A stretch of 32,000 nucleotides of DNA from Desulfocapsa sulfexigens DSM 10523 (GTDB lineage: Bacteria > Desulfobacterota > Desulfobulbia > Desulfobulbales > Desulfocapsaceae): assembly GCF_000341395.1 (NCBI RefSeq), contig NC_020304.1, positions 660,001 through 692,000 on the forward strand, given 5' to 3'. Within the stretch, counting starts at the first letter, position 1, and every line of letters starts with the position of its first letter. Positions 2,500 to 21,079 of the stretch are shown here, one piece after another. A program made the position numbers and the translations under genes. The notes below the pieces were generated by a model. It saw only the letters and a program-made list of their open reading frames with translations. It ran no database searches and had not been told where the DNA came from.

Positions 2500-4211
2500 A
2501 GAAAATTCATATCTGCGTATTAATTACTGGCCTGTTGCTCGGTTACGAAACAACAAGCCAGTCAGCCAGTATCGTTATCAGTAAACATAATCTTTCTATT
2601 AGCGGGCCCGGAGAGGTCAAATCGACAACGGAATCCAGAATCTGTGTCTTTTGCCACACCCCCCATAATGCACACCGGGATATTCCCTACCTGTGGAACC
2701 GTTCGGATCAGACAACCAACTATACACCCTATCAAAGTTCCACCATGTATGCAGCAATCGGTCAGCCCACCGGTGCATCAAAGCTCTGCCTCAGTTGTCA
2801 CGACGGAACCATCGCTCTAGGAGCGGTCCTTTCCCAGGCAACAGAAATACCATTTGCCGGTGGATTTCGTACCCTGCCCAATACCAGACCCTCATACCTT
2901 GGTACAGATCTTTCCGATGATCATCCAATTTCCTTTAGTTATCAAACCAGTATTGACCAGGGAAACTCCGAACTCGCTGTCACCAATGCCCTGCCGACAG
3001 AAATCAGTCTCGATGATGGCGGCCAGCTCCAGTGCACGGCATGCCATGACCCTCATGACAATACCTGGGGAAACTTTCTGGTGATGTCCAACCAGTTCTC
3101 GGCTCTCTGCACAGGGTGCCACATAAAAAATGGTTGGGTCAACAGTACCCATGCCGTCTCCACAGCCCAATGGAACGGTCAGGATGTCGATCCGTGGCCA
3201 AACACAGAATACACTTCGGTTGCACAGAATGGGTGTGAGAACTGTCACCGGCCTCACAGTGCAGGCAGACATCAACGGCTCCTGAAACGTGAATTTGAAG
3301 AGGACAACTGCCTTGTCTGCCACAACAGCAATGTTGCTCCTTTGAGCATTGAAGCTGAGCTGGTCAAAAGTTACACCCACCCCGTGGGCAATTACACGGG
3401 CATACACGATGCAGCAGAAGACTTTTCCACCAACAGCGTGGCCAATCATGTGGAGTGTGAGGATTGTCACAATCCGCACACCGTAACTGGTACCAGCGCA
3501 GTTGCCCCCTCCGTTTCCGGAAGAAACAGTGGTGTGCTTGGAGTTGACTCAGGGGGACAACAAATCACCTCCGCCGACAACCTCTATGAAATCTGTTTCA
3601 AATGTCATGCTGACAACAATGTAATCACGACACCGGCCATCACCCGCCAGATTGATCAGCTGAACACCCGCCTTGAATTCAGTCTGGGCAATCCCTCATT
3701 TCATCCGGTCATGCAGGCCACAGGCAGCACAGATGTCCCGAGTCTCCTGCCCCCATATACCAGCAGCAGCATTATCTACTGCACAGATTGTCATGGATCT
3801 GACAATCCCGATGGAGCACAGGGCCCCCATGGCTCCAACAATGAACATCTCCTGGTGGCAAATTACACCACCGTTGACAACACCATAGAAAGCCCTGATG
3901 CCTATGCCCTCTGCTATAGATGTCACGATCGGGATATCATCCTGGCACCTCTGCAAAGTGCCTTCAGACTGCATTTCAAGCATATACAACAGGAAAATGC
4001 GCCCTGCTCGGTTTGTCATGATGCACATGGGATCAATGCAAGCCAGGGAAGTGCTTCCCAAAACAGAGCGCTGATCAATTTTGACACCACAGTGGTTACA
4101 CCCAACTCTGCAGGCGATCTCTATTTTTCAGGGGATGACCTTACTCAGAATAAATGTGCCCTGACCTGTCATGGAGTCGACCATGAGCCAAGAGCATACT
4201 CAAGAAATTAG
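2496..4211 (+). CDS. Secreted multihaem c-type cytochrome (11 CXXCH + 1 CX3CH)
   Basis: N-terminal signal peptide (MKKIHICVLITGLLLG...SQSAS). Eleven CXXCH motifs: CVFCH, CLSCH, CTACH, CTGCH, CENCH, CLVCH, CEDCH, CFKCH, CTDCH, CYRCH, CSVCH. A C-terminal CALTCH sits at 4155-4172. Many motifs are CH-x-PH type, as in Geobacter-style paired-CXXCH cytochromes. Confidence 0.9.
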   Translation: MKKIHICVLITGLLLGYETTSQSASIVISKHNLSISGPGEVKSTTESRICVFCHTPHNAHRDIPYLWNRSDQTTNYTPYQSSTMYAAIGQPTGASKLCLSCHDGTIALGAVLSQATEIPFAGGFRTLPNTRPSYLGTDLSDDHPISFSYQTSIDQGNSELAVTNALPTEISLDDGGQLQCTACHDPHDNTWGNFLVMSNQFSALCTGCHIKNGWVNSTHAVSTAQWNGQDVDPWPNTEYTSVAQNGCENCHRPHSAGRHQRLLKREFEEDNCLVCHNSNVAPLSIEAELVKSYTHPVGNYTGIHDAAEDFSTNSVANHVECEDCHNPHTVTGTSAVAPSVSGRNSGVLGVDSGGQQITSADNLYEICFKCHADNNVITTPAITRQIDQLNTRLEFSLGNPSFHPVMQATGSTDVPSLLPPYTSSSIIYCTDCHGSDNPDGAQGPHGSNNEHLLVANYTTVDNTIESPDAYALCYRCHDRDIILAPLQSAFRLHFKHIQQENAPCSVCHDAHGINASQGSASQNRALINFDTTVVTPNSAGDLYFSGDDLTQNKCALTCHGVDHEPRAYSRN

Positions 4212-4296
4212 TGGAACACCCGTTATCACAAAGAGATACGATCACAAAACATAAGCAACAGCAGTCTTTTAAACCCCTGGGAAGAGGAGAAACAGT

Positions 4297-5679
4297 ATGA
4301 ACAGCAGTAAAAAAACAAAAAGATATCAATCATCAACATGGATTAAACTTTGTCCAATAGTCTTTATTGCAGGCATGTTTGTGCTGGAAGCCTGCGCTGC
4401 GAAGGATACGGCCGCCAATGTCAACATAAAGGCCGGCCAATCCTGTTCCACATCAGACTGCCACCCAAAAATGGGAAAAGATGCCTATGTGCATGGACCT
4501 GTGGCAACCGGCGACTGCTCCTTCTGTCACAAACAGGAAAACAAGGACAAACATATCTTTCAACCAATAAAAAATGTTGAAGCCCTCTGTTATGAATGCC
4601 ACGACAAGCTCGACATGGGTTCTGTGGTTCATCAGCCTGTGGCAGACGGCAACTGCACCGGTTGTCACAGCCCACATCAGTCCGCCAACCAGTTCCAGCT
4701 CAAGGGGGACGGACCAGGACTCTGTTACGAATGCCATGACAAGAGTATTGGTGGCGGAAAATTTGTCCACGGTCCTGTTGCTGCAGACGGATGTGTTGTC
4801 TGTCATGCCCCCCATTCGTCAGATTCACCCAAAATGCTGATGGCAGAGGGAAACGATATCTGTTTTTCATGCCATTCTGACAAACAGGATGAATTTGCCG
4901 GAAAGGAATTTGTTCACGGCCCCGTCTCTGACGGCTGTATTGAGTGCCACAGCCCGCACAGCAGCGACTTTCAATTCAGCCTGTCAGGTGAAAGCACTCA
5001 GGGGGTTTGTTTTACCTGCCATGAGGATAAGAAGGATGAAATTGCCCAGGTAACTGTAAAGCACGGGGGCCTTGAAACAGACCGCGGCTGTATGGCCTGT
5101 CACAATCCACACGTTTCATCTTTTCCCCAACAGCTTGACATGGCTCCAATGGATCTTTGTCTCTCCTGCCACGACAAAGAGTATAAACATGCAGACGGTG
5201 TCTCGGTTGCTAACATGAAAATCCTGCTTGATAATAACAGCAACCACCACGGTCCCATTGCGGATAAGGATTGTTCAGGTTGTCATAACACCCATGGATC
5301 GAAAGATTTCCGTATCCTGAGAGGCTATTACCCAAAAAAGTTTTATGCTTCCTATAATCCGGACAACTTTAAACTCTGTTTTATGTGTCATAATGACACT
5401 CTGGTCAAGGATGCCAAGACAACAACCCTGACAGGCTTCCGAAACGGTGACCAGAACCTCCATTATGTCCATGTCAATAAAACCCCAAAGGGTCGTACCT
5501 GCCGTGCCTGTCATGATGCCCATGCGACAAAAAATCCGAAGCACATAACGGACACCGTCCCCTTTGGAGCCTACCAGATGCCCGTTGGATTCACTAAAAG
5601 CAACAAGGGCGGCACCTGTCTTCCAGGTTGCCATCAGGAATTCACATACGATAGAGACAACAAGGTGAAAAACAGATGA
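4297..5679 (+). CDS. Secreted (possibly lipid-anchored) multihaem c-type cytochrome (13 CXXCH + CX4CH + CX3CH), built from repeated dihaem modules
   Basis: GAGGAG RBS at 4284-4289, 7 nt before the ATG. Signal peptide has a possible lipobox VLEA|C. There are 13 CXXCH motifs plus CSTSDCH (4444-4464) and CLPGCH (5617-5634). The module (F/Y/V)VHGPV-x3-4-CxxCH-xPH...C(Y/F)xCH(D/S)K recurs and resembles c7/c3-type units. Confidence 0.9.
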   Translation: MNSSKKTKRYQSSTWIKLCPIVFIAGMFVLEACAAKDTAANVNIKAGQSCSTSDCHPKMGKDAYVHGPVATGDCSFCHKQENKDKHIFQPIKNVEALCYECHDKLDMGSVVHQPVADGNCTGCHSPHQSANQFQLKGDGPGLCYECHDKSIGGGKFVHGPVAADGCVVCHAPHSSDSPKMLMAEGNDICFSCHSDKQDEFAGKEFVHGPVSDGCIECHSPHSSDFQFSLSGESTQGVCFTCHEDKKDEIAQVTVKHGGLETDRGCMACHNPHVSSFPQQLDMAPMDLCLSCHDKEYKHADGVSVANMKILLDNNSNHHGPIADKDCSGCHNTHGSKDFRILRGYYPKKFYASYNPDNFKLCFMCHNDTLVKDAKTTTLTGFRNGDQNLHYVHVNKTPKGRTCRACHDAHATKNPKHITDTVPFGAYQMPVGFTKSNKGGTCLPGCHQEFTYDRDNKVKNR

Positions 5680-6179
5680 ATACAAAATCGGTTTTCCTCG
5701 TTCTCATGGTTTTCATATCGACAACAGGCTTACTGCAGGCCTCTTCTGCAACAGGAAAAGAAGCGCTGTGCGAAAAAACCGCCTCATCTCTTGCACGTGA
5801 GGGAAAACTTGATGAAGGGATTAATGAAATCAGACACTGTATAGAAAAAGGAAGCTCTGGAGCCAAGAGTCATGTTGTCCTTGGCTACCTTCTTCTTGAA
5901 AAAGGTGAGCCCCAGCAAGCAATGGCATCTTTTGAAAAAGCGTTGCAACTCCGTCCACGCTCCAGTGACGCTAAGACCGGAAAGGGAATAATCCTGGCAC
6001 AACAGGGGGATCTAAAAGGGGCTGAAGCAATCCTTCAGGATGCCTTAAAATTAAACCCGGATCCGGCCCGCACATACTATGAGCTTGGTATTCTCTACCA
6101 ACAGCTTGGTGATACACAACAGGCTGTTGACTTTTTTAAGCAGGGAATTGCATCCTACGAAGAGGAAAAAGGCAAATGA
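5676..6179 (+). CDS. Secreted TPR-repeat protein
   Basis: Signal peptide MNTKSVFLVLMVFISTTGLLQASSA. TPR-like units include VVLGYLLLEKGEPQQAMASFEKALQLRP, GKGIILAQQGDLKGAEAILQDALKLNP and YYELGILYQQLGDTQQAVDFFKQGI. ATGA overlaps at both ends (5676-5679, 6176-6179). Confidence 0.8.
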   Translation: MNTKSVFLVLMVFISTTGLLQASSATGKEALCEKTASSLAREGKLDEGINEIRHCIEKGSSGAKSHVVLGYLLLEKGEPQQAMASFEKALQLRPRSSDAKTGKGIILAQQGDLKGAEAILQDALKLNPDPARTYYELGILYQQLGDTQQAVDFFKQGIASYEEEKGK

Positions 6180-7309
6180 CAAGAAAACCCCACACACGAT
6201 TCTTTCCCAGGAAGAAAAATCTTCTGATTATTCTTTTTGCAACATTTGCCCTGCTCCAGAGTTCCATTTCTGTGCCTGCCCTCAAAACACTGGGAGTGGG
6301 GACAGAGGCACCTGACTTTGAGCTGGTGGATCTCAACGGTAAAAAACAGAATTTCTCGTCAATCAGGGGGGACAAACAGACCATTCTCCTCTTTTGGGCC
6401 TCCTGGAGCAGGCAGTCGGAAAAAGCTCTTAAGGAGATGGAAAAGCTTCATATAAAGTATAAGGACATGGGACTATCGGTTGTCGGTATCAATGTTGAAA
6501 GACAAACCATAGATGCCAAAGCCATGACTGACATTCAGGGGATACATGATCGTCTCCAGATCACGTTTCCCATCCTGATCGACCGTGGGCTTGTCTCTTT
6601 TCATGACTATGGAGTTATTGCAGTACCCACTACGGTCATCCTGGACAAGGACAGGCAAATAGCCTTTGAGCTTTCGGGTTTTCCTCTGGTTGGAGCACGG
6701 GATATGATCCACTTTGTTGCAGCGTCCATTGAAGGCAAAGAGGCAACCGTTGTGCTTGCTGAAAAAACAGGATACCAGCCTGACAAAAAGGCTGTTCGAT
6801 CCTGGAACATGGGAGTAAAAGCCCTGAATTCAAAACGCACCTACAAATCCGCTGAAATGTGGTTTAAAAAAGCGATTCAGGCAGATCCTAAATTCATCCA
6901 GCCATATCTCAGTCTGGGTATCTTTTACCAGGAACAGGGCAAGCCGCCACAGGCAAGAGAACAATTTCAACGGGTTCTCCAGGAACAGCCAGACAACGTG
7001 AAAGCCCTGAGTCAAATGGGTCTCTCACTTCTGGAGGAAGGTTCCCTCGCATCCGCACGGGAAATGCTGGAAAAAGCGATCAAAGCAGACGAGGCACACA
7101 CACCAAGCTTCTACTATCTGGGCTACCTCACCGGCAGGGAAGGTGACCTGAAAAAAGCGGCTGAACTGTTTACTAATGCTGAAGAAATCAATCCAATGGA
7201 TTACCGGATAAATGTGTATCGGGGCATGATGTTTGAGGAGCAGAACAATCTGAGTGAGGCGGCAAGGAGTTACAAAAATGCTCTCAAACAGCTGTTAAAT
7301 TTACAATGA
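6176..7309 (+). CDS. Thioredoxin-fold (TlpA/ResA/CcmG-like) domain lacking active-site cysteines, fused to C-terminal TPR repeats
   Basis: N-terminal hydrophobic signal or anchor. The redoxin-like core reads APDFELVDLNGKKQNFSSIRGDKQTILLFWASWSRQSEKAL...GLSVVGINVE...FPILIDRG...YGVIAVPTTVILDKDRQI. The usual W-C-x-x-C is W-S-R-Q-S (6404-6418). The C-terminal half is TPR (YLSLGIFYQEQGKPPQAREQFQRVLQEQPDN...). Confidence 0.8.
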   Translation: MTRKPHTRFFPRKKNLLIILFATFALLQSSISVPALKTLGVGTEAPDFELVDLNGKKQNFSSIRGDKQTILLFWASWSRQSEKALKEMEKLHIKYKDMGLSVVGINVERQTIDAKAMTDIQGIHDRLQITFPILIDRGLVSFHDYGVIAVPTTVILDKDRQIAFELSGFPLVGARDMIHFVAASIEGKEATVVLAEKTGYQPDKKAVRSWNMGVKALNSKRTYKSAEMWFKKAIQADPKFIQPYLSLGIFYQEQGKPPQAREQFQRVLQEQPDNVKALSQMGLSLLEEGSLASAREMLEKAIKADEAHTPSFYYLGYLTGREGDLKKAAELFTNAEEINPMDYRINVYRGMMFEEQNNLSEAARSYKNALKQLLNLQ

Positions 7310-8295
7310 AACTCCTACGTCACACTCCATATATTGTGCTGGCTGTGCTGGTCTTCTGTACCATTGACGGCAGAGCTGGCACAGGATTTTCGGTACAGTT
7401 TCCTCCACCCAACAGCTATATTGAAAATGAACATCTCAGTATCATCCTGGAGCCTGGAAACCGGGGGGTAGATCAGATACGGATTGTATCAGGGAAAAAG
7501 GCGCCCCTCAACATTCCCGTACGATCTGGCAGCACCAAGGTCTGTTTCGGAGTTTCTCTTGACAAAGGGATGAACACCATACAGATCACCGGGCTGAAAC
7601 AGGGAAAGATCGTTGCGCAGACAGATCGTACTGTTTTCTTTCGCTCCGATCTTTTTCCCAGATTCAGAGTTCCCCCAGCTGAATTCAAACGATATTATTT
7701 TCATTTTATCAACAACGAAAAGAGCTGCGCCAGCTGCCATGACATGGAACCAACCCTCAGCAGTCTCCGCCCTGAATCCCCAAAACAATCGCCCTGCTAC
7801 ACATGCCATTCGACAAAAAGTAGCGATGCATTTACCCACAATCCGGCCGCACAATGGACCTGTTTTGCCTGTCATGAGGTACTCCGAGGGGAACGAAAAT
7901 ACACCTCTCCAAAACCGGATCAGAAGGTGTGTTATCCATGCCACAATTATGAAGTGAGGGACTGGAAAAAAAAGAAACTGATGCACGGGCCAACGGCTGT
8001 TGGTCATTGTACTCTCTGCCACAATCCACATGGCTCAAAGTGGCCGGCACTGCTACGGATGCAGACCACTGACCTCTGTGTAAACTGTCACGAAGATAAG
8101 GCCTCGGGTGCCCACGTCATCGCAGGATTTTACGGCAAGGGACACCCGGTCAGGGGAGTCAAGGATCCCTTTAATCCAAAGCGGGAATTCACCTGTGCCG
8201 GCTGCCACAATCCACATGCCGGAGATTCACAAAGTCTCCTGAATCACGACAACAGCAATATGACTACGTATTGTACTCTCTGCCACAAAATGTAG
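7306..8295 (+). CDS. Secreted octahaem c-type cytochrome with N-terminal beta-sandwich-like domain
   Basis: Signal peptide present. The first ~130 aa are haem-free and beta-rich. Eight CXXCH motifs follow: CASCH, CYTCH, CFACH, CYPCH, CTLCH, CVNCH, CAGCH, CTLCH. The start overlaps the upstream stop (ATGA 7306-7309). Confidence 0.9.
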   Translation: MKLLRHTPYIVLAVLVFCTIDGRAGTGFSVQFPPPNSYIENEHLSIILEPGNRGVDQIRIVSGKKAPLNIPVRSGSTKVCFGVSLDKGMNTIQITGLKQGKIVAQTDRTVFFRSDLFPRFRVPPAEFKRYYFHFINNEKSCASCHDMEPTLSSLRPESPKQSPCYTCHSTKSSDAFTHNPAAQWTCFACHEVLRGERKYTSPKPDQKVCYPCHNYEVRDWKKKKLMHGPTAVGHCTLCHNPHGSKWPALLRMQTTDLCVNCHEDKASGAHVIAGFYGKGHPVRGVKDPFNPKREFTCAGCHNPHAGDSQSLLNHDNSNMTTYCTLCHKM

Positions 8296-8434: not shown

Positions 8435-8914
8435 ATGGCAAAGAAAAATGAACTGGCAAAGAAAGAAGAAAAGCGACCCGTTTCTTTTTTTGATGAGATG
8501 ACTAAGCTCTTCGAAAGGTTTCCCAGTCATCCCTTTTCAATGATGACTCACCCAACCATGTGGTCTGGCGGTCCTTTTTCCAAAATGGCTGACATCTCTC
8601 CCTCTGTTGATATTTTCGAGGAAGATGACACCATTGTGGTAAAAGCAGATATTCCTGGCATCAGCAAAGAGGATCTCAATGTTTCCATTAACGATAGCAT
8701 TCTGACCCTCTCCGGTGAGAAAAAGCAGGAGGAGAAAATTGAAAAGAAAAATTACCATCGGGTAGAGCGCTCATACGGCTCCTTCTCCCGTAGTTTTCAG
8801 CTTCCTGGTGCTGTGAACAGCGATCAGGTTAAAGCCTCTTTTAAAAAGGGAGTTCTGGAAATACGAATCCCCAAGACTGGTGATAACAAGAGAAAAAAAA
8901 TAAGCATCACATAA
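8435..8914 (+). CDS. Small heat-shock protein, Hsp20/alpha-crystallin family
   Basis: GGAGGA RBS at 8423-8428. Alpha-crystallin domain reads VDIFEEDDTIVVKADIPGISKEDLNVSINDSILTLSGEK...YHRVERSYGSFSRSFQLPGAVNSDQVKASFKKGVLEIRIPK. Confidence 0.92.
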   Translation: MAKKNELAKKEEKRPVSFFDEMTKLFERFPSHPFSMMTHPTMWSGGPFSKMADISPSVDIFEEDDTIVVKADIPGISKEDLNVSINDSILTLSGEKKQEEKIEKKNYHRVERSYGSFSRSFQLPGAVNSDQVKASFKKGVLEIRIPKTGDNKRKKISIT

Positions 8915-9193: not shown

Positions 9194-10228
9194 ATGAAAA
9201 TTTGTTTTATTATGTATCCATGGGAACGGGTAACCCCAGAAACAGATACCACGCTCAGACTGATTCATGAGTGCGTCAACAGAGGATATCTGGTCGCCAT
9301 CACGACACCAAATAAGCTGACCATCCGGGAAAGCATTACCAGTGCTTTCTGCAATGTGGCAGTAAAAGGTAAAACCTCACAAAATATCCCCTCGTTTTAC
9401 CGAAATGTGGAGTTTAAAAAACTTCTGCTCCCCCTGGCCGGTTTCGATGCGATCTTTATGCGTGCCAACCCACCGCTGGACACCCTGGCTCTGAACTTTC
9501 TTGACTCTGTACGTGATCACACATTTATCATAAACGATATCGACGGATTGAGAATCGCCAACAATAAAGTCTACACAGCCTCTTTTCAGGAGGAGGCCCA
9601 GGAATATATTCCCAGAACCTTTGTTTCAAAAAATCGAGATTACCTTATACGGATACTGAACGAATCGGAAGACGAACGGATGATCATGAAGCCACTGGAC
9701 GGTTACGGTGGCCGCGGTGTAATCATTCTCGAGAAATCAGCAAAACGCAATGTCTCCTCCCTCCTTGATTTCTATATCGGGGAAGGAGCGGACACCAACT
9801 ATGTGATCCTCCAGGAATATGCCCATGGAGCTGAAGACGGTGACGTGAGGATAATGATGCTCAATGGAGAACCCATAGGAGCAATGCGCCGTATACCGGC
9901 CCAGGATGACATCCGTTCAAACGTACATGCAGGAGGGAGTGTTGTCAAACACACGCTCAGCAACAGGGAAAGGCTGCTGTGCAAGGCGGTGGGGCCGAAA
10001 CTGGTTCGTGACGGTCTTTATTTTGCTGGTCTTGATGTCATTGGTGAAAAACTGATCGAGGTGAATGTACTCAGTCCCGGCGGTGTAGCCAGGATTAACA
10101 AACTCAACCGAACAAAACTTCAACAGAAGGTAATCGACTTTGTGGAGCGTGTTGTCGCAACCAAAGAGATCTCTATCAGTCGCAAACATTCATTTCGCAA
10201 GAGTATTGAAGATGCAGACCTTGTCTGA
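9194..10228 (+). CDS. Glutathione-synthetase (GshB)-family ATP-grasp ligase, possibly a paralogue with a different substrate
   Basis: Colinear similarity to E. coli GshB as I recall it: MKICFIMYP.., IMKPLDGYGG, DGDVRIMMLNGEPIGAMRRIP..IRSNVHAGG, GLYFAGLDVIGEKLIEVNVLSPGG. I prefer the ATG at 9194 (AAGGA at 9179-9183; homology starts there) over the track's 9107. No gshA is present in the window. Confidence 0.85.
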   Translation: MKICFIMYPWERVTPETDTTLRLIHECVNRGYLVAITTPNKLTIRESITSAFCNVAVKGKTSQNIPSFYRNVEFKKLLLPLAGFDAIFMRANPPLDTLALNFLDSVRDHTFIINDIDGLRIANNKVYTASFQEEAQEYIPRTFVSKNRDYLIRILNESEDERMIMKPLDGYGGRGVIILEKSAKRNVSSLLDFYIGEGADTNYVILQEYAHGAEDGDVRIMMLNGEPIGAMRRIPAQDDIRSNVHAGGSVVKHTLSNRERLLCKAVGPKLVRDGLYFAGLDVIGEKLIEVNVLSPGGVARINKLNRTKLQQKVIDFVERVVATKEISISRKHSFRKSIEDADLV

Positions 10229-12203
10229 AAAAGAGATCATTCGCAACATACGGCGTCAGGAACCCTTCGCAGCAGTTATTACCAGCGGAGCCTTCAGTAT
10301 CAGGGTTGATCGTTATACCCCTGCAGTCTGTACCGCCATTCATGCAGGACATGCAGTGCAGGAGGAGCTTCACGACAAACTGCTCCTGAGTGAAACCGAA
10401 AGACGCTATGAGGAAGATCCTTTTACCGGTGACATGCTGGCTTCTCTACCCATCGTCATGGAGGCGCTTGACTCACGTTACCAGTATGATCTGAACAGAT
10501 TGCCAGAGGAAGCCATCTATGATGAAGCCTGGGGTAAAAAGGTCTGGAAAGAGCCCCTCACAGAAAAGGAGAAACAGGCAAGCATTGCCAGGCATGACAG
10601 TTACTACAGGGTGCTTCATAGCCTTTTGACTGTTCTGGAAAAACTGTTTGCCCGCTGCATCATCTATGACCTGCACTCCTACAACCACAAACGCCTGACA
10701 GCTGCTACCCCGCTCTTCAACATAGGCACCCATTTCATAAATATGGATGAGTACCAACCGGTTGTGAATCATTTAAAGGGATTGCTCCTGAAAACAGAAT
10801 TTCCAAATATCGAAAACCGGCTGGCCCTCGATGATGTTTTTTTGGGAAAGGGCTATCAGGCGGCCTTTATCCATGAGCAGCACAACAAGAGCCTCTGTAT
10901 TCCCCTTGAAATCAAAAAAGTCTATATGGATGAGACCACGGGAGAGTCATACCCGCTTATCCTTGAAGCAGTTACTGAAACCCTGAAGCAGGCATTCAGC
11001 TACAATGCAGCCTATTTCAGCAGAAAATTTACCGGAAAAAAAATCCAGCGTGCCCTCTTCTTTGCCGAGGAAAGCAGCCGTGTAGTAAAAAAAGTTGATA
11101 CGGCTCTCTATCGGGTGGCCAAGGGGATTGATACACTGCGTTACATTAATCCTGTAAATCTTAGCCAGGAACGGAAACGTTTTTTTGCTAAACAGTGTAG
11201 TTACACTCCACAATTTCGCTATCGACAACTGAAAATTGACCCCTTTGCTTTTCGCAAGAAGCTTTACGCCATTGGTGTGGATACTATTCAGGATGTCAGC
11301 ATCCGCCAGCTCTATAGGAGCACTATCGACATGCTGGCCCAGAAAGTTGATCTTCTGACCACCATTGGAACAGACAGTTTCCTCTATAACTCTCTGCGGT
11401 TTCACGGAGAACCATCCGAGGCAGATATAGAACTGGCCCGTTTTCTTATTGCCGCCCCCCCTATCGAAAAAGAAAAAAATCCTAAACTGCTGAGCGCCAG
11501 AGAATGTGCAAATGTATTTAAGCGAGCTGAAAACGATTACGGCTTTAGCTTTCAGGTGGAACTGAGTAGTCGCATCGTGGCCAGAGCGATGGTTTCCAGT
11601 GGCCGCCGTAAAGTTATGATCAATCGCAACGCCCAGTTCACAGAAGTTGAGATTCAGGCGCTTATTCACCATGAATTAGGGGTACATATGGTGACCACCA
11701 GCAACGCCAGGCAACAGTATTTGAAAATCTTCAGGATGGGCCTGCCAGGGAACACCGAGACACAGGAGGGTCTGGCACTCCTCAGCGAATATCTGTCAGG
11801 CAACCTGACTCTTGCCCGTTTACAATCACTGGCCCACCGGGTAATGGCGGTGCACATGATGGTCAAAAACTATGATTTCCCAAGAACTTTTAAGGCCCTC
11901 AGCGATGACTACGGTCTCTCCCGGGAGGATGCCTTTAATCTGACGGTACGGGTATATCGTGGAGGGGGATTTACCAAGGATTATCTCTACCTCACAGGTC
12001 TGCGTAAGGCTCTGCAGCTCTATCGCTCCGGAACGGACCTACAACCCATGTTTGTGGGGAAGACTTCCATTGCCTTCCTCGACACCTTAAAAGAAATGCT
12101 TGGCCGGGATGTGGTATCCAACCCCCTGCATCTCCCCAGGGCCTGGCAGATGAAAGTACAGAGCAGTCCGATTCTGGACTATCTGCTAAGTTCTTTTGGA
12201 TAA
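10212..12203 (+). CDS. Fusion protein: N-terminal N-formylglutamate-amidohydrolase-like domain + C-terminal DUF1704 / QEGLA-motif (MATCAP-like) zinc metallopeptidase domain
   Basis: The C-terminal half carries HELGVH (HExxxH, 11670-11687) and TQEGLALLSEY (QEGLA, 11763-11777) about 30 residues later, the signature of the DUF1704/'QEGLA motif protein' family. The N-terminal half has an FGase-like IIYDLHSY motif. The ATG at 10212 overlaps the upstream stop by 17 nt; the track's TTG at 10140 is less likely. Confidence 0.8.
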   Translation: MQTLSEKEIIRNIRRQEPFAAVITSGAFSIRVDRYTPAVCTAIHAGHAVQEELHDKLLLSETERRYEEDPFTGDMLASLPIVMEALDSRYQYDLNRLPEEAIYDEAWGKKVWKEPLTEKEKQASIARHDSYYRVLHSLLTVLEKLFARCIIYDLHSYNHKRLTAATPLFNIGTHFINMDEYQPVVNHLKGLLLKTEFPNIENRLALDDVFLGKGYQAAFIHEQHNKSLCIPLEIKKVYMDETTGESYPLILEAVTETLKQAFSYNAAYFSRKFTGKKIQRALFFAEESSRVVKKVDTALYRVAKGIDTLRYINPVNLSQERKRFFAKQCSYTPQFRYRQLKIDPFAFRKKLYAIGVDTIQDVSIRQLYRSTIDMLAQKVDLLTTIGTDSFLYNSLRFHGEPSEADIELARFLIAAPPIEKEKNPKLLSARECANVFKRAENDYGFSFQVELSSRIVARAMVSSGRRKVMINRNAQFTEVEIQALIHHELGVHMVTTSNARQQYLKIFRMGLPGNTETQEGLALLSEYLSGNLTLARLQSLAHRVMAVHMMVKNYDFPRTFKALSDDYGLSREDAFNLTVRVYRGGGFTKDYLYLTGLRKALQLYRSGTDLQPMFVGKTSIAFLDTLKEMLGRDVVSNPLHLPRAWQMKVQSSPILDYLLSSFG

Positions 12204-12216
12204 GGAGATGATGTAT

Positions 12217-13074
12217 ATGAAATTTGCGGATATGCCCGATCAATATAGAGACTATGCTTCCTCAAAGGTGGTGATTCTGCCCATACCCTACGATGGTACT
12301 TCAACCTGGATGAAGGGTGCTGATCGCGGGCCGCAGGCCATATTGGATGCCTCCTTTCATCTGGAACTATACGATATAGAAACTGGAACGGAGGTATACC
12401 GTCATGGTATCTGTACTCTGGATCCAGTTTCCTGTCCAAAGGATCCAGGAGAAATGGTTGCAGAACTTCGGCAGCATGCCCTGCCCCTCTTCCGCGACAA
12501 CAAACTTGTGGTGGGGCTTGGCGGAGAGCATTCCATCACTGTCGGCCTGCTCCAGGCGGCACAGGCCCGCTATCCGAATTTGAGTGTCCTCCAGCTTGAT
12601 GCCCATACGGATCTGCGTGACAGTTATATGGGAAGCCCCTATAACCATGCCTGCGTTATGGCTAGAGCCAATGAAATCTGCCCGGTTGTACAGGTGGGAA
12701 TCCGCAGCATGGATATTGAGGAGATGGACAGTATCGAGCCAGACCGCCTGGTGCTTGCCCATGACCTGCATCGACACGGCATCAATGCTGCAACCAATGC
12801 TCTGGATCAGCTCACTGACACAGTTTATCTCACCATTGACCTTGATGTCCTTGATCCTTCCTGTATGCCATCCACCGGAACTCCGGAGCCAGGAGGAATT
12901 GACTGGTACATGCTGAACCAGATTATCCAGTACGTGGCCAGTGAAAAGAAAATAGTAGGCATGGATGTCGTAGAACTATTACCTCGCAAACATAATCAGG
13001 CCCCAGATTTCCTTGCTGCCAAACTTATTTACCGCTCTCTGAGTATGATCCTCACTGATTCTCTGAACCCATAG
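12217..13074 (+). CDS. speB: Agmatinase (ureohydrolase/arginase family)
   Basis: Mn-ligand motifs GGEHSIT, LDAHTDLRD and LTIDLDVLDPSCMPSTGTPEPGG. AAGGAG RBS at 12202-12207. The ATG at 12217 has the best spacing; in-frame alternatives are 12208, 12211 and TTG 12196. Confidence 0.88.
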   Translation: MKFADMPDQYRDYASSKVVILPIPYDGTSTWMKGADRGPQAILDASFHLELYDIETGTEVYRHGICTLDPVSCPKDPGEMVAELRQHALPLFRDNKLVVGLGGEHSITVGLLQAAQARYPNLSVLQLDAHTDLRDSYMGSPYNHACVMARANEICPVVQVGIRSMDIEEMDSIEPDRLVLAHDLHRHGINAATNALDQLTDTVYLTIDLDVLDPSCMPSTGTPEPGGIDWYMLNQIIQYVASEKKIVGMDVVELLPRKHNQAPDFLAAKLIYRSLSMILTDSLNP

Positions 13075-13333: not shown

Positions 13334-13516
13334 ATGGGTAAAAAAAGATGTATGAGCTGTGGCGGTGATATTCGAATTTATTACGATCATGAGATTGGCG
13401 ATGAAGTATTCTGCGAAGAATGTGAACGGGAATACAGAATCTGTTCTTTACGCCCGGTTCATCTGGAACCTCTGGAAACAGGCAACGACTATCATTTTGA
13501 AGAAGATGATTATTAA
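13334..13516 (+). CDS. Small LysW-like zinc-ribbon protein (candidate amino-group carrier / acidic-tail substrate protein)
   Basis: The 60-aa product is MGKKRCMSCGGDIRIYYDHEIGDEVFCEECEREYRICSLRPVHLEPLETGNDYHFEEDDY. It has C6-x2-C9 and C27-x2-C30 (four-Cys ribbon), then an ...LRPVHLEP linker and an acidic tail. This is the same layout as Thermus LysW as I recall it (...VVCEDCGAELEV..LDPLRLEP...EDWGE). It sits 42 nt upstream of speA. There is no homology search to back this. Confidence 0.6.
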   Translation: MGKKRCMSCGGDIRIYYDHEIGDEVFCEECEREYRICSLRPVHLEPLETGNDYHFEEDDY

Positions 13517-13558: not shown

Positions 13559-15478
13559 ATGCGTAACACACAACACCAACCGTCTCAACAGAGAAGCTGT
13601 ACTCCCTATAATGTCGAATCCTGGGGCAACGGCTATTTTACTGCCAACGAGAAAGGGCACCTCTGCGTCCTTCCTGAAAAAAAGGAAATCGGTCCCAGAA
13701 TCGACTTTATGGAGGTCATCAAAGAGATACAGGAACAGGGAATTCCTTTTCCCACCGTTATACGCTTCCATGACATCCTTCGGGCTCAGGTTCAGCTCCT
13801 CAATATCACCTTTGCTAATACAATTACAGAGCATGGTTACCAGGGAAGATTTTATGGAGTGTATCCCATAAAGGTCAATCAGATGCGGGAGGTTGTTGAG
13901 GAAATCATTGATGCGGGCGGTCCCTTTGACCACGGTCTGGAGGCTGGATCAAAATCAGAGCTCCTGGCCTGTCTCGCCTATAATGACAACAGTAATTCTC
14001 TCACCATCTTAAACGGCTACAAGGACGAGGATTATATCCGACTCGCCCTGCTCGGCCGCAAGCTTGGACGAAAGATCATCATTGTTGTTGAAAGTTTTTC
14101 TGAGTTTGAGATGATTATTCGCCTTTCCAAGGAGATGCAGGCTGACCCGCTCATTGGGATCCGAACCAAGCTTTCAGTCAAAGGACGGGGACGCTGGGCC
14201 GGATCCAGCGGTGACCGTGCCAAATTCGGTCTCACCTGCAGCGAAATCGTTGAAGGAGTAGAGCTTCTGCAGCGAAACGGCATGACCAACTGTCTCAAAC
14301 TCCTCCACTTTCATGTGGGCAGCCAGATCCCCGATATTCGCATCGTAAAAGAGGCAGTCACCGAGGCAGGACGCATCTATGCCAACCTTGCCCAGAGTGG
14401 GATCATAATCGACTATTTTGATGTGGGTGGCGGACTCGGTATTGATTATGATGGCAGCAAATCAACGGGCGACTCTTCACGAAACTATACCCTGGCAGAA
14501 TACTCTGCAGATATTGTCAGCGGCCTGCAGCAGATCTGTGACGAGATGAATGTTCCCCACCCCCATATTGTCAGTGAAAGTGGCCGGTATATCACAGCCC
14601 ATCACTCCTGTGTTGTCACCAATGTGATTAACACCATCCATCAGGCCAGCAATCCGTGCAAAACAACCGTTAAAGAAGATGAACATGTCCTTCTTGGTAA
14701 TATGCGGGAATCAGCAGAGCACCTCAAGCTTGAGAACTGTCAGGAAATTTTCAATGACATTCAACAGATTAAAGAGGATACCATTGCCGCCTTCCGCCTC
14801 GGAGTCATCTGCCTGGTGGAACGGGCCAAAATAGAAACTCTCTACTGGCTGATTATTAACCGCATTGACACTATGCTTGCTGATCTCGATTTCATCCCCG
14901 AGGAAATGCAGCAGATAAAAGAACTCAAGGCCAGTCAGTACCTCTGCAACTTCTCCGTGTTCCAGTCTGCGGCTGACACCTGGGCCATCAGCCAGATCCT
15001 GCCCATTATGCCGCTGCTTCGCCTCGATGAAGAACCCAGTGAACGCTGCTCCCTTGCCGACATCACCTGTGATTCAGATGGAAAAATTACCCGCTTTATT
15101 GCCAAAGACGGGTATGATCAGAGTCTGCTCCTTCATACCCTGCAGCCAGACGAGGATTACTTTATCGGTCTTTTTCTCACCGGGGCCTATCAGGATGTTA
15201 TGGGTGATATGCATAACCTCTTTGGCCGCCTTAACGAGGTACATATCTACTGCGACGACGACGATCCCAACGACTTTTACATTGAAGAGGTGATCAGAGG
15301 AACATCGTCCCAGCAGGTTCTTGCCACCATGCAGTACAGCCCTGAAATCATGGCCAGATCTATCAAGACACAGATAGATCTGCAGATTAAACAGGGAACA
15401 GTGCTTCCACGGGAAGGTGTTGGCCTGATTGATTTTTACGAAAGCTGTCTCCAGGGTTACACATACCTGAATATTTAA
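13559..15478 (+). CDS. speA: Biosynthetic arginine decarboxylase (PLP, fold III)
   Basis: YNVESWGNGYFTANEKGHLCV, GVYPIKVNQ (PLP-Lys) and GLEAGSKSELLA match the E. coli SpeA landmarks YNIAWWGNNYY..., VYPIKVNQ and GLEAGSKAEL. Length is 639 aa. Confidence 0.93.
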   Translation: MRNTQHQPSQQRSCTPYNVESWGNGYFTANEKGHLCVLPEKKEIGPRIDFMEVIKEIQEQGIPFPTVIRFHDILRAQVQLLNITFANTITEHGYQGRFYGVYPIKVNQMREVVEEIIDAGGPFDHGLEAGSKSELLACLAYNDNSNSLTILNGYKDEDYIRLALLGRKLGRKIIIVVESFSEFEMIIRLSKEMQADPLIGIRTKLSVKGRGRWAGSSGDRAKFGLTCSEIVEGVELLQRNGMTNCLKLLHFHVGSQIPDIRIVKEAVTEAGRIYANLAQSGIIIDYFDVGGGLGIDYDGSKSTGDSSRNYTLAEYSADIVSGLQQICDEMNVPHPHIVSESGRYITAHHSCVVTNVINTIHQASNPCKTTVKEDEHVLLGNMRESAEHLKLENCQEIFNDIQQIKEDTIAAFRLGVICLVERAKIETLYWLIINRIDTMLADLDFIPEEMQQIKELKASQYLCNFSVFQSAADTWAISQILPIMPLLRLDEEPSERCSLADITCDSDGKITRFIAKDGYDQSLLLHTLQPDEDYFIGLFLTGAYQDVMGDMHNLFGRLNEVHIYCDDDDPNDFYIEEVIRGTSSQQVLATMQYSPEIMARSIKTQIDLQIKQGTVLPREGVGLIDFYESCLQGYTYLNI

Positions 15479-15497: not shown

Positions 15498-16676
15498 ATG
15501 TCACGAGTACTTATTATCGGGGCCGGCGGAGTCGGTTCGGTTGTTGTCCACAAATGCTGCCAGGTGCCTGAGATATTCTCTGAAATCATGCTGGCTTCCC
15601 GTACCAGAGAAAAGTGCGACGCCATCGCGGCCCAGCTGCCCATAGCCATCCAGACCGCCAGGGTAGATGCGGATCAGGTAGAAGAGCTGGTAGCCCTGAT
15701 GCAGAGCTTCAAACCGGATTTATGTATAAATGTTGCTCTCCCCTACCAGGATCTTACCATCATGGATGCCTGCCTGGAGTGTGGTGTCAATTACCTTGAT
15801 ACGGCCAACTACGAACCACGCGATGAAGCAAAATTCGAATATCACTGGCAGTGGGCCTACCAGGAGCGTTTCAAGGAGGCTGGACTCATGGCTCTGCTTG
15901 GTTCCGGATTTGATCCCGGTGTCACCAATGTATTTACCGCCTGGGCCCTGAAAACCCAGTTTGATGAAATCCGGGAACTTGACATCATTGACTGTAATGC
16001 CGGAGATCATGGCCAGCCCTTCGCTACCAATTTTAATCCCGAGATCAATATCCGTGAGGTCACAGCCCCGGCCCGGCACTGGGAAGATGAGCAATGGGTG
16101 GAAACTCCTGCCCTGTCAACGAGCAAAGATTTTGACTTTCCCGAAGGGATCGGTCCGCGGAAGATCTACCTAATGTACCACGAAGAACTGGAGTCCCTGA
16201 CCAGACATATTCCCGGTCTGGAAAAAGCACGTTTCTGGATGACCTTTTCCGACAACTACCTCCGTCATCTTGAAGTGCTTCAGAACATTGGAATGACCAG
16301 TATAGAACCCGTGGAATACAATGGACAGCAGATCATCCCTCTGCAATTTCTGAAAGCACTCCTGCCCGATCCCGGCTCTCTTGGCCCCCTCACCCATGGA
16401 CGCACCTGCATAGGCTGTCTGATCAAAGGAATAAAGGATGGACGGGAAAAGGAGTACTATGTCTACAACATCTGCGACCATCAGCAGTGCTATGAAGAGG
16501 TTGGAGCACAGGCTGTTTCCTATACCACCGGCGTCCCGGCCATGATTGGGGCCATGCTTATGCTCAGCGGAGTCTGGAGCGGACACGGGGTTTTTAACAT
16601 GGAACAACTCGACCCTGCACCTTTTATGGAGAAGTTGAACCTGCATGGTCTGCCATGGAAAGAAGTTATCTCCTGA
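15498..16676 (+). CDS. Carboxy(nor)spermidine dehydrogenase (saccharopine-dehydrogenase family)
   Basis: N-terminal Rossmann motif VLIIGAGGVGSVVVHK...IMLASRT. At ~390 aa it matches CANSDH/CASDH, and it sits immediately upstream of nspC, overlapping it. Confidence 0.85.
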   Translation: MSRVLIIGAGGVGSVVVHKCCQVPEIFSEIMLASRTREKCDAIAAQLPIAIQTARVDADQVEELVALMQSFKPDLCINVALPYQDLTIMDACLECGVNYLDTANYEPRDEAKFEYHWQWAYQERFKEAGLMALLGSGFDPGVTNVFTAWALKTQFDEIRELDIIDCNAGDHGQPFATNFNPEINIREVTAPARHWEDEQWVETPALSTSKDFDFPEGIGPRKIYLMYHEELESLTRHIPGLEKARFWMTFSDNYLRHLEVLQNIGMTSIEPVEYNGQQIIPLQFLKALLPDPGSLGPLTHGRTCIGCLIKGIKDGREKEYYVYNICDHQQCYEEVGAQAVSYTTGVPAMIGAMLMLSGVWSGHGVFNMEQLDPAPFMEKLNLHGLPWKEVIS

Positions 16677-17812
16677 ATTTCGACCCGGAGCAGGTGAATA
16701 CCCCCTGCTTTGTGGTCGATGAATCGGCACTCCTTCGCAATCTCAAAATCCTGGATGAGGTGCAGCAGCAAACAGAGTGCCGGATCCTCCTGGCTCTTAA
16801 GGGATTTGCCATGCCCGGCGTTTTCCCTCTTGTTCGTAAATATCTGCACGGGGTCTGTGCCAGTTCTCCCCACGAAGCAAGACTTGGAAGAGAGGATTTT
16901 CAGCGGGAAGTACACAGTCACGGTCCTGCCTTCAGCGACAGGGATCTGACCGAGCATCTGCTCTACTGTGATCATCTGGTCTTTAACAGCTTTCAGCAGT
17001 GGCACCGTTTCCAGAAACAGGTCAGGGAATGTCCGAGAGATATCTCCTGCGGTCTGCGGGTTAACCCCGCTCACTCCGAAACTGCGGTCGCCCTGTATGA
17101 TCCCTGCCGCCCTGGCTCCCGCCTCGGTATTTTGCGGGAACAGTTTAGTGGAAAGGATCTTACTGGAATCAGTGGTCTCCACCTCCACACTCTCTGTGAA
17201 AAGGGAGCAGACGCACTGGCTCGAACGGCAGAGGTCTTTGAAGAGCAATTCGGGGAATTTTTACCTCGCATGCAGTGGCTCAATCTGGGAGGCGGTCATC
17301 TTATCACGGCTCCTGGCTATGACACTGGTCTCCTTTGTGAAGTCATCAACCATTTCCGCTCCCGCCATGATCTGACCATTTATCTGGAACCAGGTGAGGC
17401 CATAGCCATCAACACCGGAGCACTTATCACTACTGTCCTTGATATAATTGACAATGATGGTCCCATAGCTATCCTTGACACCTCGGTCTCCTGTCATATG
17501 CCAGATGTCCTGGAAATGCCCTACCGGCCTGATATCAGGGGGGCCTCCCTGCCCGATACTCTGGCCCACAACTACCGTTTGGGAGGAGTCTCCTGTCTGG
17601 CTGGAGATATGCTTGGAGATTACTCCTTTGCTGCCCCATTGCAGGTTGGTGACCGCCTTATCATCGAAGACATGAGCCACTACACCATGGTCAAGACCAA
17701 CACCTTTAACGGAGTTCGCCTGCCGGATATCGCACTGTACAGGCCAGAAAGGAAGGCAGTAGAGACCCTCCGCAGCTTTACTTATGAAGACTACCGGAAT
17801 CGTCTTGGGTAA
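16655..17812 (+). CDS. nspC: Carboxy(nor)spermidine decarboxylase
   Basis: Fold-III decarboxylase with the NspC-type N-terminus TPCFVVDESALLRNLKILD...ILLALKGF. It overlaps the dehydrogenase gene by 22 nt, which is the canonical pairing. Confidence 0.88.
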   Translation: MERSYLLNFDPEQVNTPCFVVDESALLRNLKILDEVQQQTECRILLALKGFAMPGVFPLVRKYLHGVCASSPHEARLGREDFQREVHSHGPAFSDRDLTEHLLYCDHLVFNSFQQWHRFQKQVRECPRDISCGLRVNPAHSETAVALYDPCRPGSRLGILREQFSGKDLTGISGLHLHTLCEKGADALARTAEVFEEQFGEFLPRMQWLNLGGGHLITAPGYDTGLLCEVINHFRSRHDLTIYLEPGEAIAINTGALITTVLDIIDNDGPIAILDTSVSCHMPDVLEMPYRPDIRGASLPDTLAHNYRLGGVSCLAGDMLGDYSFAAPLQVGDRLIIEDMSHYTMVKTNTFNGVRLPDIALYRPERKAVETLRSFTYEDYRNRLG

Positions 17813-20608: not shown

Positions 20609-20614
20609 TACGAG

Positions 20615-21079
20615 ATGACCAGGATTATGGCAGTTACCAAAGAAGATATCCCCGGGCTCTGCCTCCTCGAGGAACAACTTTTTACCTGTGATCGGATATC
20701 TCCCAGGCAATTCAGTTATCTGATTTCCAAAGCAAACAGTGTTGTTATCAAGGCAGTCTGTTCCGAAATATTTGCAGGGTACATGGTGCTGCTGAGGCGC
20801 AGAAATAGCCGGAGGATGCGGATCTATTCACTCGGGGTCGCCCCATCTGTGAGACGACTGGGTGTTGCAGCTGAGATGCTTGCATTTGCAGAAGATATTG
20901 CTGCAAAACATAACTGTAATTGTCTGAGTCTCGAGGTTTCCAAACATAACGATGCCGCCCTGAGATTCTACAAAAATGCTGGTTTTCTCTACTATGGTGA
21001 AAAACAGAAGTTTTACGAAGACGGAACCACTGCCCTGCTGTTAAAAAAAAACATACCTGAAAGAGAAACACAACCATGA
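20615..21079 (+). CDS. GNAT family N-acetyltransferase (RimI-like size)
   Basis: Acetyl-CoA motif region IYSLGVAPSVRRLGVAAEML...LSLEVSKHNDAALRFYKNAGF. It starts 6 nt after the RimK-like stop, and its stop overlaps the SET start. Confidence 0.85.
   Translation: MTRIMAVTKEDIPGLCLLEEQLFTCDRISPRQFSYLISKANSVVIKAVCSEIFAGYMVLLRRRNSRRMRIYSLGVAPSVRRLGVAAEMLAFAEDIAAKHNCNCLSLEVSKHNDAALRFYKNAGFLYYGEKQKFYEDGTTALLLKKNIPERETQP

Follow-up and report, generated by a model that had tools for sequence, protein, structure and literature searches.

An arrangement in which a ligase and an opposing peptidase act on a C-terminus is already known from several systems, namely RimK-RimB, TTL-MATCAP and LysX-LysK. RimK glutamylates the acidic C-terminus of ribosomal protein S6 and is co-transcribed with RimB, a polyglutamate-specific protease (PMC7343187), which means that a writer and an eraser can share one operon in this enzyme clade, and human enzymes of the MATCAP family shorten acidic tubulin tails by their terminal Tyr and remove polyglutamate from them as well (PMC10499314). 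Here we describe an overlapping gene pair, hereafter the module, of Desulfocapsa sulfexigens DSM 10523 that represents a new combination of families for such an arrangement, a GshB-fold ATP-grasp ligase and a single polypeptide with an FGase-like (N-formylglutamate amidohydrolase-like) and a MATCAP/DUF1704 domain. The pair lies in a stretch of 32,000 nucleotides (nt) of contig NC_020304.1 (positions 660,001 to 692,000), referred to as the window, and all coordinates are those of this whole stretch unless another locus is named. The ligase and the FGase-MATCAP protein are a real, widely conserved functional unit whose association goes far beyond chance. The pair is probably not for making glutathione, and the two enzymes may act on one substrate as an add/remove cycle.

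The gene pair and its conservation

The ligase gene (9194..10228, + strand, 344 amino acids, aa) was characterized by Pfam, NCBIfam, a PDB sequence search and AlphaFold2 (AF2)/Foldseek as a GshB-fold ATP-grasp enzyme of the NF009110/PRK12458 subfamily. It starts with the ATG at 9194, a Met that its homologues also use, and stops with the TGA at 10226-10228, its N-domain covering nt 9194-9553 and its ATP-grasp domain nt 9563-10108. The following gene (10212..12203, + strand, 663 aa), a predicted FGase-like and MATCAP/DUF1704 bifunctional metallohydrolase according to Pfam, TIGR02421, AF2 and Foldseek, starts with the ATG at 10212 (MQTLSEKEI...), which is common to 61 homologues. By direct reading the two genes overlap by 17 nt (10212..10228, + strand), through which their translation would be coupled, and the same overlap is found in the RefSeq coordinates of Photobacterium damselae (RS17020/RS17025). 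A first-pass annotation, made from the letters of the window alone, had placed the ligase stop 17 nt inside the next gene, had read that gene as an FGase-DUF1704 fusion with an ...IIYDLHSY... motif, HELGVH at 11670-11687 and QEGLA at 11763-11777, and had seen no gshA nearby. All of these coordinates are right on direct reading, with ...IIYDLHSY... at residues 150-157; the fusion is confirmed by PF05013 and PF08014 matches above their cut-offs and by an intact HExxxH...E; and no glutamate-cysteine ligase is present among the 24 open reading frames (ORFs) of at least 120 aa scanned in the window.

Loci carrying parts of the module, whether genome or metagenome neighborhoods (numbered L001 and so on), were collected from both sides of the pair, by searching an alignment of the fusion against one genome per species, of which the best 80 loci were kept, and by querying metagenome contigs with the ligase, which gave 75 evaluable loci. 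On the hydrolase side, 74 of the 80 genome loci (79 evaluable) have the ligase immediately upstream, usually overlapping and 57-80% identical to the window ligase. On the ligase side, the pairing recurs in 64-69 of the 75 metagenome loci; in 64 of them the FGase domain begins -13 to +47 nt from the last ligase codon, and the commonest offset, -13, corresponds to the 17-nt overlap of the window. The co-occurrence of ligase and DUF1704 that the first-pass annotation had proposed to count is, in the loci collected, that of a conserved unit, found from either direction. It extends over at least seven phyla (Desulfobacterota, many orders of Gammaproteobacteria, Deinococcota with Trueperaceae, Planctomycetota with Scalinduaceae, Bacteroidota, Nitrospirota and Campylobacterota), and a cyanobacterial member is also among the protein-search matches.

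Other arrangements retain the same parts. On pSymB of Sinorhizobium meliloti and related replicons there are three separate adjacent genes in the order FGase, QEGLA protein and NF009110 ligase, where the FGase is 40% identical to the FGase domain of the window and the ligase, which is 30% identical to the window ligase, scores 478.8 against NF009110 and below the cut-offs of both GshB models. That the components are fused in one lineage and are separate, reordered neighbors in another argues for a functional unit. In four further metagenome loci FGase and MATCAP are genes of their own and a tandem-rhodanese gene separates them from the ligase, and two metagenome loci contain an additional stand-alone FGase gene. 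Not all DUF1704 proteins belong to the module, as a stand-alone QEGLA protein of 426 aa in Pseudoalteromonas has neither ligase nor FGase neighbors.

Two features of these variants may be recorded. The rhodanese insertion occurs in one metagenomic lineage (L147, 5050-5880; L160, 5035-5871) and may hint at sulfur or thiol chemistry. The rhizobial QEGLA proteins (L081, 5257-7143; L083, 5257-7152) are extended at the N-terminus by about 270 aa that match no Pfam family and may be a degenerate FGase copy, their resemblance to the start of the FGase domain being faint (BLASTP E = 0.1-1).

The ligase and the fused hydrolase

Domains were called by comparing Pfam and NCBIfam/TIGRFAM profile scores with curated cut-offs, and folds by Foldseek comparison (TMt) of AF2 models, with sequences compared also to the PDB. 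The ligase has both Pfam domains of GshB (GSH-S_N, 81 bits; GSH-S_ATP, 188 bits), yet of the two GshB equivalog models it falls below the cut-off of TIGR01380 (238.7 against 299.05) and barely exceeds that of NF003573 (275.7 against 272), its best model being the NF009110 subfamily (444.7, cut-off 408). It is not of the RimK family (no RimK_N match; TIGR00768, 77.4 against 143.4; PRK10446, 50 against 331) and not of the TTL/TTLL type (no PF03133 match at E ≤ 0.01). The suggestion of the first-pass annotation that the pair does something other than make glutathione is in keeping with the placement of the ligase as an NF009110 paralogue under the TIGR01380 cut-off. Every named homologue among the matches listed is called 'glutathione synthase'.

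In the PDB the ligase matches E. coli GshB (1GSA) with an E value of 1.9e-33 and RimK with 5e-12. Its AF2 model (pLDDT 84) is closest to 1GSA (TMt 0.86), followed by RimK (0.79-0.84, including the RimK-RpsF complex) and by ArgX/LysX with LysW (0.68-0.76), and two of these three nearest folds act on acidic protein tails, which we count in favor of a tail substrate. Alignment with 1GSA indicates that the ATP/Mg2+ and acyl-phosphate residues are all kept (E. coli K160, the G164-G167 loop, R210, R225, D273, E281 and N283). A check of the residues that bind gamma-Glu-Cys and Gly, as the first-pass annotation had proposed, could be carried part of the way by alignment: equivalents of E. coli R86, R233 (with the role that we presume it to have in GshB) and N235 are conserved. 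The lid loop, DIRSNVHAGG, is closer to DFRSNLHRGG of RimK than to ETRGNLAAGG of GshB, the model has an extra C-terminal helix of about 35 residues relative to E. coli GshB, and the ligases are basic, with a median isoelectric point (pI) of 8.57 (n = 68) against 5.11 for E. coli GshB. Judged from sequence and model, the enzyme is a distinct GshB paralogue whose ATP-grasp catalytic set is complete and whose fold is of the GshB type.

The fusion begins with the FGase-like domain (10320..10916, + strand, residues 37-235), of the N-acyl-glutamate amidohydrolase type with a carboxypeptidase-type fold, which scores 62.8 bits against PF05013 (cut-off 28.9), and ends with the MATCAP/DUF1704 gluzincin carboxypeptidase domain (11175..12191, + strand, residues 322-660), with 372.5 bits against PF08014 (cut-off 27) and 387.4 against TIGR02421 'QEGLA' (cut-off 338.65). 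Both are present in 120 of 120 homologues among the matches listed. Across 62 sequences the FGase domain has invariant H44, R64, E68, R89, D93, N95, D153 and K236 and near-invariant E67 and H155, of which H44, E67/E68, D153 and H155 are consistent with a putative metal site. The MATCAP domain has invariant H487, E488, H492 and E519 and an invariant RGGGFTKD..Y block, and its HELGVH...QEGLA aligns with HEIGTH...TEEGLA of human MATCAP. Since the metal and catalytic motif residues are invariant or nearly so, both domains look catalytically competent. AF2 predicts one body (pLDDT 92.4, pTM 0.89) whose C-terminal half matches human MATCAP (7z5g, E 3e-9, TMt 0.71) and whose N-terminal half matches an FGase (2q7s, E 4e-9, TMt 0.70) and, weakly, M14 carboxypeptidases. 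The median pI of the MATCAP domain is 8.44.

The MATCAP domain is matched by 2,531 clusters at 50% identity (E ≤ 1e-3). The first-pass annotation had taken the function of bacterial DUF1704 proteins as not established, and indeed the searchable literature holds essentially nothing on it: no functional study of bacterial DUF1704/QEGLA, PA3496 or PA3697 was found in it, nor a paper tying bacterial DUF1704/MATCAP to an ATP-grasp ligase, with one ATP-grasp survey not covered.

Genomic surroundings and low-salt expression

Genes of polyamine synthesis follow the pair on the + strand of the window. Agmatinase (speB, 12217..13074; TIGR01230, 227 bits against a cut-off of 174) lies 5-14 nt after the hydrolase stop and is probably in the same transcript, operon structure being read from gene spacing only. 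It is followed by biosynthetic arginine decarboxylase (speA, 13559..15478; NF003763, 809 bits), by a saccharopine-dehydrogenase-family enzyme (15498..16676; Pfam Sacchrp_dh_NADP and Sacchrp_dh_C) that is probably carboxy(nor)spermidine dehydrogenase, with a 66% identical homologue in a similar cluster in L045, and by a pyridoxal-phosphate decarboxylase (16655..17812; Pfam Orn_DAP_Arg_deC), probably carboxy(nor)spermidine decarboxylase, homologues of which adjoin the module in L012 and L045. These genes would amount to a complete route from arginine to spermidine, the last two assignments resting on domain families. Promoter and terminator scans of the window gave nothing above shuffled expectation, and the terminator scan likewise gave no terminator-like site on the + strand between the hydrolase and the polyamine genes. 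In nine other loci of four phyla (L007, L012, L020, L045, L063, L065, L071, L074 and L084), variously arranged polyamine genes lie no more than 8 kb from the module, and MgtE is near it in seven (L001, L014, L019, L057, L059, L079 and L084). Although this is a minority of loci, the proximity is, by our own estimate rather than a formal test, well above what chance would give for genes present once or twice in a genome.

Expression links the same genes. In an RNA-seq comparison of P. damselae at 1% and 3% NaCl, the 'glutathione synthase' RS17020 was 38.4-fold and the QEGLA protein RS17025 27.5-fold up at low salt, together with RimK (52-fold), speB (11-fold) and carboxynorspermidine synthase and decarboxylase (4-5-fold), the pair and RimK being among the most induced genes (PMC10308900). 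A DUF413 gene (9.1-fold) and RS17005 (18.6-fold) were also up, and hdfR, which lies between them, was 2.3-fold down (PMC10308900). That study, of strain RM-71, treats A0J47_RS17020 as the glutathione synthetase GshB and ties it to V. cholerae colonisation data (PMC10308900), whereas the gene is an NF009110 paralogue that overlaps a QEGLA gene.

Small proteins with acidic tails are the other recurrent feature. Between speB and speA lies a 60-aa ORF (13334..13516, + strand) with the sequence MGKKRCMSCGGDIRIYYDHEIGDEVFCEECEREYRICSLRPVHLEPLETGNDYHFEEDDY, a LysW-like zinc ribbon (PF21344 match under the cut-off) whose acidic tail ends in Tyr (...LEPLETGNDYHFEEDDY). Thermus LysW (3wwl, E 8.6e-6) matches it along the entire globular part, and the ORF is a candidate substrate or carrier. 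Four public homologues keep the tail DY.FEE[DG][DE][YF]; in L084, a 99%-identical contig, the ORF differs by four synonymous and three non-synonymous changes, and the spacer upstream of it has diverged markedly more. In L002, another Desulfocapsa locus, two LysW-like ORFs with tails ...EFNEDFDSF and ...DYFIMAED lie directly upstream of the fusion, one of them passing PF21344 (42.1 bits); in all, such ORFs occur in 3 of 161 loci. Taken together, the acidic-tailed neighbors come from five or more families that are unrelated to one another. In Gammaproteobacteria there are 48 cases of a DUF413/MaoP-like gene that directly precedes the ligase on its strand, with Photobacterium tails ...DNDLDY or ...DTDLDI; PA3496-family proteins (NF046101; tails such as ...DDYYDDWD) either shortly precede the ligase or, where the ligase lacks the fusion, follow it by about 100 nt; a fourth family occurs in Flavobacteriales; and a fifth, in Photobacterium, is represented by the 56-aa P. 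damselae RS17005, which has a KKKKRR core, a tail ...NFDYDEY and no Pfam family and adjoins hdfR. When non-overlapped small ORFs with at least six acidic residues in the last 12 were counted, 24 of 1,348 within 2.5 kb of the pair qualified against 1 of 1,091 elsewhere in the same loci. A stricter filter returned almost nothing in loci outside the Gammaproteobacteria; the counts given here come from a relaxed, systematic scan. RS17005-type proteins were also seen in L037 (5074-5244, - strand) and about 20 other Photobacterium loci, and five ligases without a downstream FGase-MATCAP gene (L116, L118, L127, L128 and L131) have a PA3496-family small gene (...DDWDLDDDDA) about 95-100 nt after their stop.

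Five evaluable genome loci have no GshB-like ligase upstream of the fusion, and two of them are informative. Thiomicrorhabdus arctica (L019) has, on one strand, the order mgtE-rimB-rimK-astE/aspA-like-fusion, and in L002 rimB-rimK is divergent from the two LysW-like ORFs and the fusion that follows them; neither locus has a GshB-like ligase. The gene of the succinylglutamate-desuccinylase/aspartoacylase family that adjoins rimK and the fusion in L019 (6445-7623) recurs near the module in one Photobacterium (L020, 499-1521), and this family is another enzyme type that cleaves N-acyl acidic amino acids.

An obligate three-gene system was considered and rejected, as all partners that emerged when the neighbors in the 80 genome loci were clustered all against all are restricted to particular lineages: LysR/HdfR (40 loci) and DUF413 (37 loci) are confined to Gammaproteobacteria, judged by record titles, with SpeB, MgtE, a DEAD-box helicase and others in 10 or fewer. 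Genes for DEAD-box RNA helicases lie within 3.5-6.2 kb of the module in six loci of several lineages (L006, L013, L025, L052, L056 and L062), which may be chance because such helicases are multi-copy. In the window itself, an HSP20 small heat-shock protein (8435..8914, + strand; Pfam HSP20) directly precedes the pair and is noted for context; it has the same position in L084, where it is preceded by MgtE in place of the block at 1405-8295 (+ strand) of the window, which encodes multihaem c-type cytochromes (doubled CXXCH), an NHL-repeat beta-propeller, TPR proteins and an AhpC/TSA-TPR fusion. Past the polyamine genes, a cluster at 19133-21672 (+ strand) that directly follows a citrate synthase gene (17881-19035) may be another peptide or protein-modification cassette. 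Its first gene encodes a second ATP-grasp ligase, which carries an RLAN (RimK-like ATP-grasp N-terminal) domain, and genes for a GNAT acetyltransferase and a SET-domain protein come after it.

Possible functions and related systems

We tentatively favor, at somewhat less than even confidence, the view that the pair writes and erases the C-terminal end of a substrate that is acidic and ends in a carboxylate, with protein tails as the favored case. The ligase would use ATP to activate the terminal carboxylate as an acyl-phosphate and add an amino acid to it, as GshB, RimK and LysX do. The MATCAP domain would take off a C-terminal residue, most likely an aromatic or hydrophobic one, and the FGase-like domain a C-terminal acidic residue, a proposal made because a Glu-ended peptide is chemically an N-acyl-glutamate, the type of substrate on which FGases act. 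The last residues of the substrate would thus be written and erased by the three domains together. Candidate substrates would be the LysW-like ORF in the window (...EEDDY), the DUF413/MaoP-like, PA3496-family and other small acidic-tailed proteins elsewhere, and ribosomal protein S6 where RimK replaces the ligase, and the unit would be linked to polycation homeostasis (polyamine synthesis and Mg2+ uptake) and respond to low osmolarity. That ligase and MATCAP domain are basic, that RimK can stand in for the ligase and that the neighbors have acidic tails all fit tail editing, and most of the weight comes from context beyond the pair itself, namely the polyamine operon with its putative translational coupling, the LysW-like ORF, the RimK/RimB replacement, the acidic-tailed neighbors and the low-salt co-induction.

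Several observations weigh against tail editing. Of the 36 ligase lineages defined by clustering at 80% identity, no more than 11 have an acidic-tailed small gene nearby, and no partner is universal; the acidic-tail counts are not independent, because much of the enrichment is hdfR-DUF413 synteny within Gammaproteobacteria; and the tail ends vary (Y, I, L, D, E and others), with some adjacent DUF413 proteins having no acidic tail. E. coli MaoP is acidic-tailed although E. coli is not known to have the module. The LysW-like ORF of the window is separated from the pair by speB and is below its family cut-offs (PF21344, 23 against 27; TIGR01206, 26.9 against 53.2; NF041070, 25 against 75). A full-length GshB-type N-domain and the R86, R233 and N235 equivalents suit a small gamma-glutamyl-type substrate equally, the only FGase activity known to us is on a small molecule, and a strictly co-translated writer and eraser would be futile unless regulated. 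A bolder form of the proposal is unlikely as a whole: that the module is a bacterial counterpart of the tubulin 'tail code', in which a GshB/RimK-clade ligase and one polypeptide with two domains, a detyrosinase-like one of the MATCAP type and a Glu-releasing one of carboxypeptidase fold, cyclically add and trim aromatic and acidic residues at the ends of acidic small-protein tails (LysW-like, DUF413/MaoP-like, PA3496-family and possibly S6), tuning their contacts with polyamines, Mg2+, ribosomes or the nucleoid as osmolarity falls, and that the eukaryotic MATCAP enzymes descended from it.

The strongest competitor, possible although doubtful, is small-molecule metabolism, in which the ligase builds a small peptide or amide (an N-acyl- or gamma-glutamyl-di/tripeptide, or an amino-acid or peptide-polyamine conjugate like glutathionylspermidine), the MATCAP domain removes its C-terminal residue, the FGase domain cleaves the remaining N-acyl or gamma-glutamyl amide, and the compound is coupled, at low osmolarity, to the pools of arginine, polyamines or glutamate. 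The full-length GshB N-domain, the best fold match to 1GSA (TMt 0.86) and the conserved equivalents of R86, R210, R225, R233 and N235 speak for it, as does the deposition of the closest FGase structures, 2q7s and 2odf, as an N-formylglutamate amidohydrolase and an uncharacterised gene product. Polyamine genes that adjoin the module in the window and nine loci and are co-induced with it at low salt, and the rhodanese between ligase and hydrolases in one lineage, would be explained as well; two hydrolytic domains match a compound with two amide bonds; the very high conservation of the ligase across phyla (57-80% identity to the window ligase) suits a universal metabolite; and there is no universal protein partner. 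On the other hand, the module has no conserved neighbor, gshA-like or other, that would make an acceptor, such MATCAP-family enzymes as have been characterised work on protein tails, and the basic charge of ligase and MATCAP domain, the RimK swaps and the acidic-tailed neighbors would be left unexplained.

Two further alternatives carry little weight. It is improbable that the module is a carrier-protein pathway, in which the ligase loads a substrate onto a LysW-like acidic tail, further enzymes, some perhaps encoded in the polyamine operon, convert it and FGase-MATCAP releases the product, as LysX, LysW and LysK do in lysine/ornithine synthesis. LysW-type pathways normally have a ligase and a hydrolase encoded in one operon, ArgX/LysX-LysW complexes are among the closest ligase folds, and LysW-like ORFs are present in the window and L084, while two of them adjoin the hydrolase in L002; but they are found in only 3 of 161 loci, score under the LysW equivalog cut-offs and have tails ending in Tyr, Phe or Asp rather than the C-terminal Glu of LysW, and the window ORFs scanned include none of the LysZ, LysY or LysJ type. 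An ordinary glutathione synthetase that lies beside an unrelated peptidase gene by chance is very unlikely and the least probable of all. The uniform 'glutathione synthase' names of the homologues among the matches listed, the NF003573 score just over its cut-off (275.7 against 272), the intact catalytic residues and a glutathione peroxidase gene next to the lone ligase of L116 would agree with it, whereas TIGR01380 fails (238.7 against 299), the rhizobial member fails both GshB models with 479 for NF009110, the 32-kb window has no gshA, the charge of the ligase is opposite to that of E. coli GshB, and the ligase is coupled to FGase and MATCAP in more than 85% of loci, whichever gene the search starts from, and also where the genes are separate and in another order. 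To our knowledge, moreover, Desulfobacterota, Deinococcota, Planctomycetota, Bacteroidota and Campylobacterota are not known for glutathione. Because of the conserved coupling to two peptidase domains, the label 'glutathione synthase' is probably wrong for the whole NF009110 subfamily.

The module is thus widespread, consistently mislabelled and strongly regulated, and at least one transcriptome paper has discussed an NF009110 gene as part of glutathione metabolism (PMC10308900). Bacterial DUF1704 is a large family whose only characterised relatives edit tubulin tails, and its fixed ATP-grasp partner offers a concrete testable hypothesis with named candidate substrates and tractable hosts in Photobacterium, Shewanella and S. 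meliloti (pSymB). Were tail editing true, it would be a new reversible C-terminal protein modification in bacteria, tied to polyamine/Mg2+ homeostasis, and would point to the origin of the eukaryotic detyrosinase; were the substrate a small molecule, the module would make an undescribed osmolarity-regulated peptide or amide metabolite.

Among known systems, E. coli GshB (1GSA) shares with the module ligase both Pfam domains, the best sequence and fold match, the ATP/Mg2+ and acyl-phosphate residues and a lid loop of equal length. The module ligase differs in being a separate NCBIfam subfamily, basic, with about 35 residues of extra C-terminal helix and a RimK-like lid motif, and in being coupled to a peptidase in most loci found, with no gshA nearby. 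Glutathionylspermidine synthetase/amidase also combines an ATP-dependent ligase with an opposing hydrolase in fixed stoichiometry and has a polyamine link, but its ligase and amidase (CHAP) families are unrelated to those of the module, whose own polyamine link is one of neighborhood and co-expression only. LysX/ArgX-LysW-LysK likewise brings a RimK-clade ATP-grasp ligase, a small acidic-tailed zinc-ribbon protein and a metallohydrolase into one neighborhood. The LysW-like ORF of the module, however, is below cut-off and ends in Tyr rather than Glu, no LysZ/Y/J is among the window ORFs scanned, and the module has LysW-like genes beside it in no more than a few Desulfobulbales loci.

RimK-RimB resembles the module in that a GshB/RimK-clade ATP-grasp ligase is co-transcribed with a peptidase that reverses it on an acidic protein tail (PMC7343187); the RimK fold is the second-best match of the module ligase, RimK/RimB replace that ligase in L002 and L019, and RimK is co-induced with the pair in P. 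damselae. The two differ in the N-domain of the ligase, which is of the GshB type and not RimK_N (TIGR00768, 77 against 143), and in the erasers, which are putatively FGase and MATCAP metalloenzymes in the module whereas RimB is retropepsin-like. The tubulin system of TTL/TTLL and MATCAP/TMCP/CCP differs in that the module ligase is GshB-like and not TTL, there is no tubulin, both predicted hydrolytic activities are in one polypeptide and the bacterial proteins are without the microtubule-binding extensions of MATCAP. It is like the module in that its MATCAP gluzincin shares the HExxxH...E and RG..F(T/S)KD..YL blocks as well as the fold (TMt 0.71) and its partner ligase has an ATP-grasp fold, while the second domain of the module has a carboxypeptidase-type fold and its candidate substrates have acidic tails that end in Tyr/Phe, much as alpha-tubulin ends in ...EEY.

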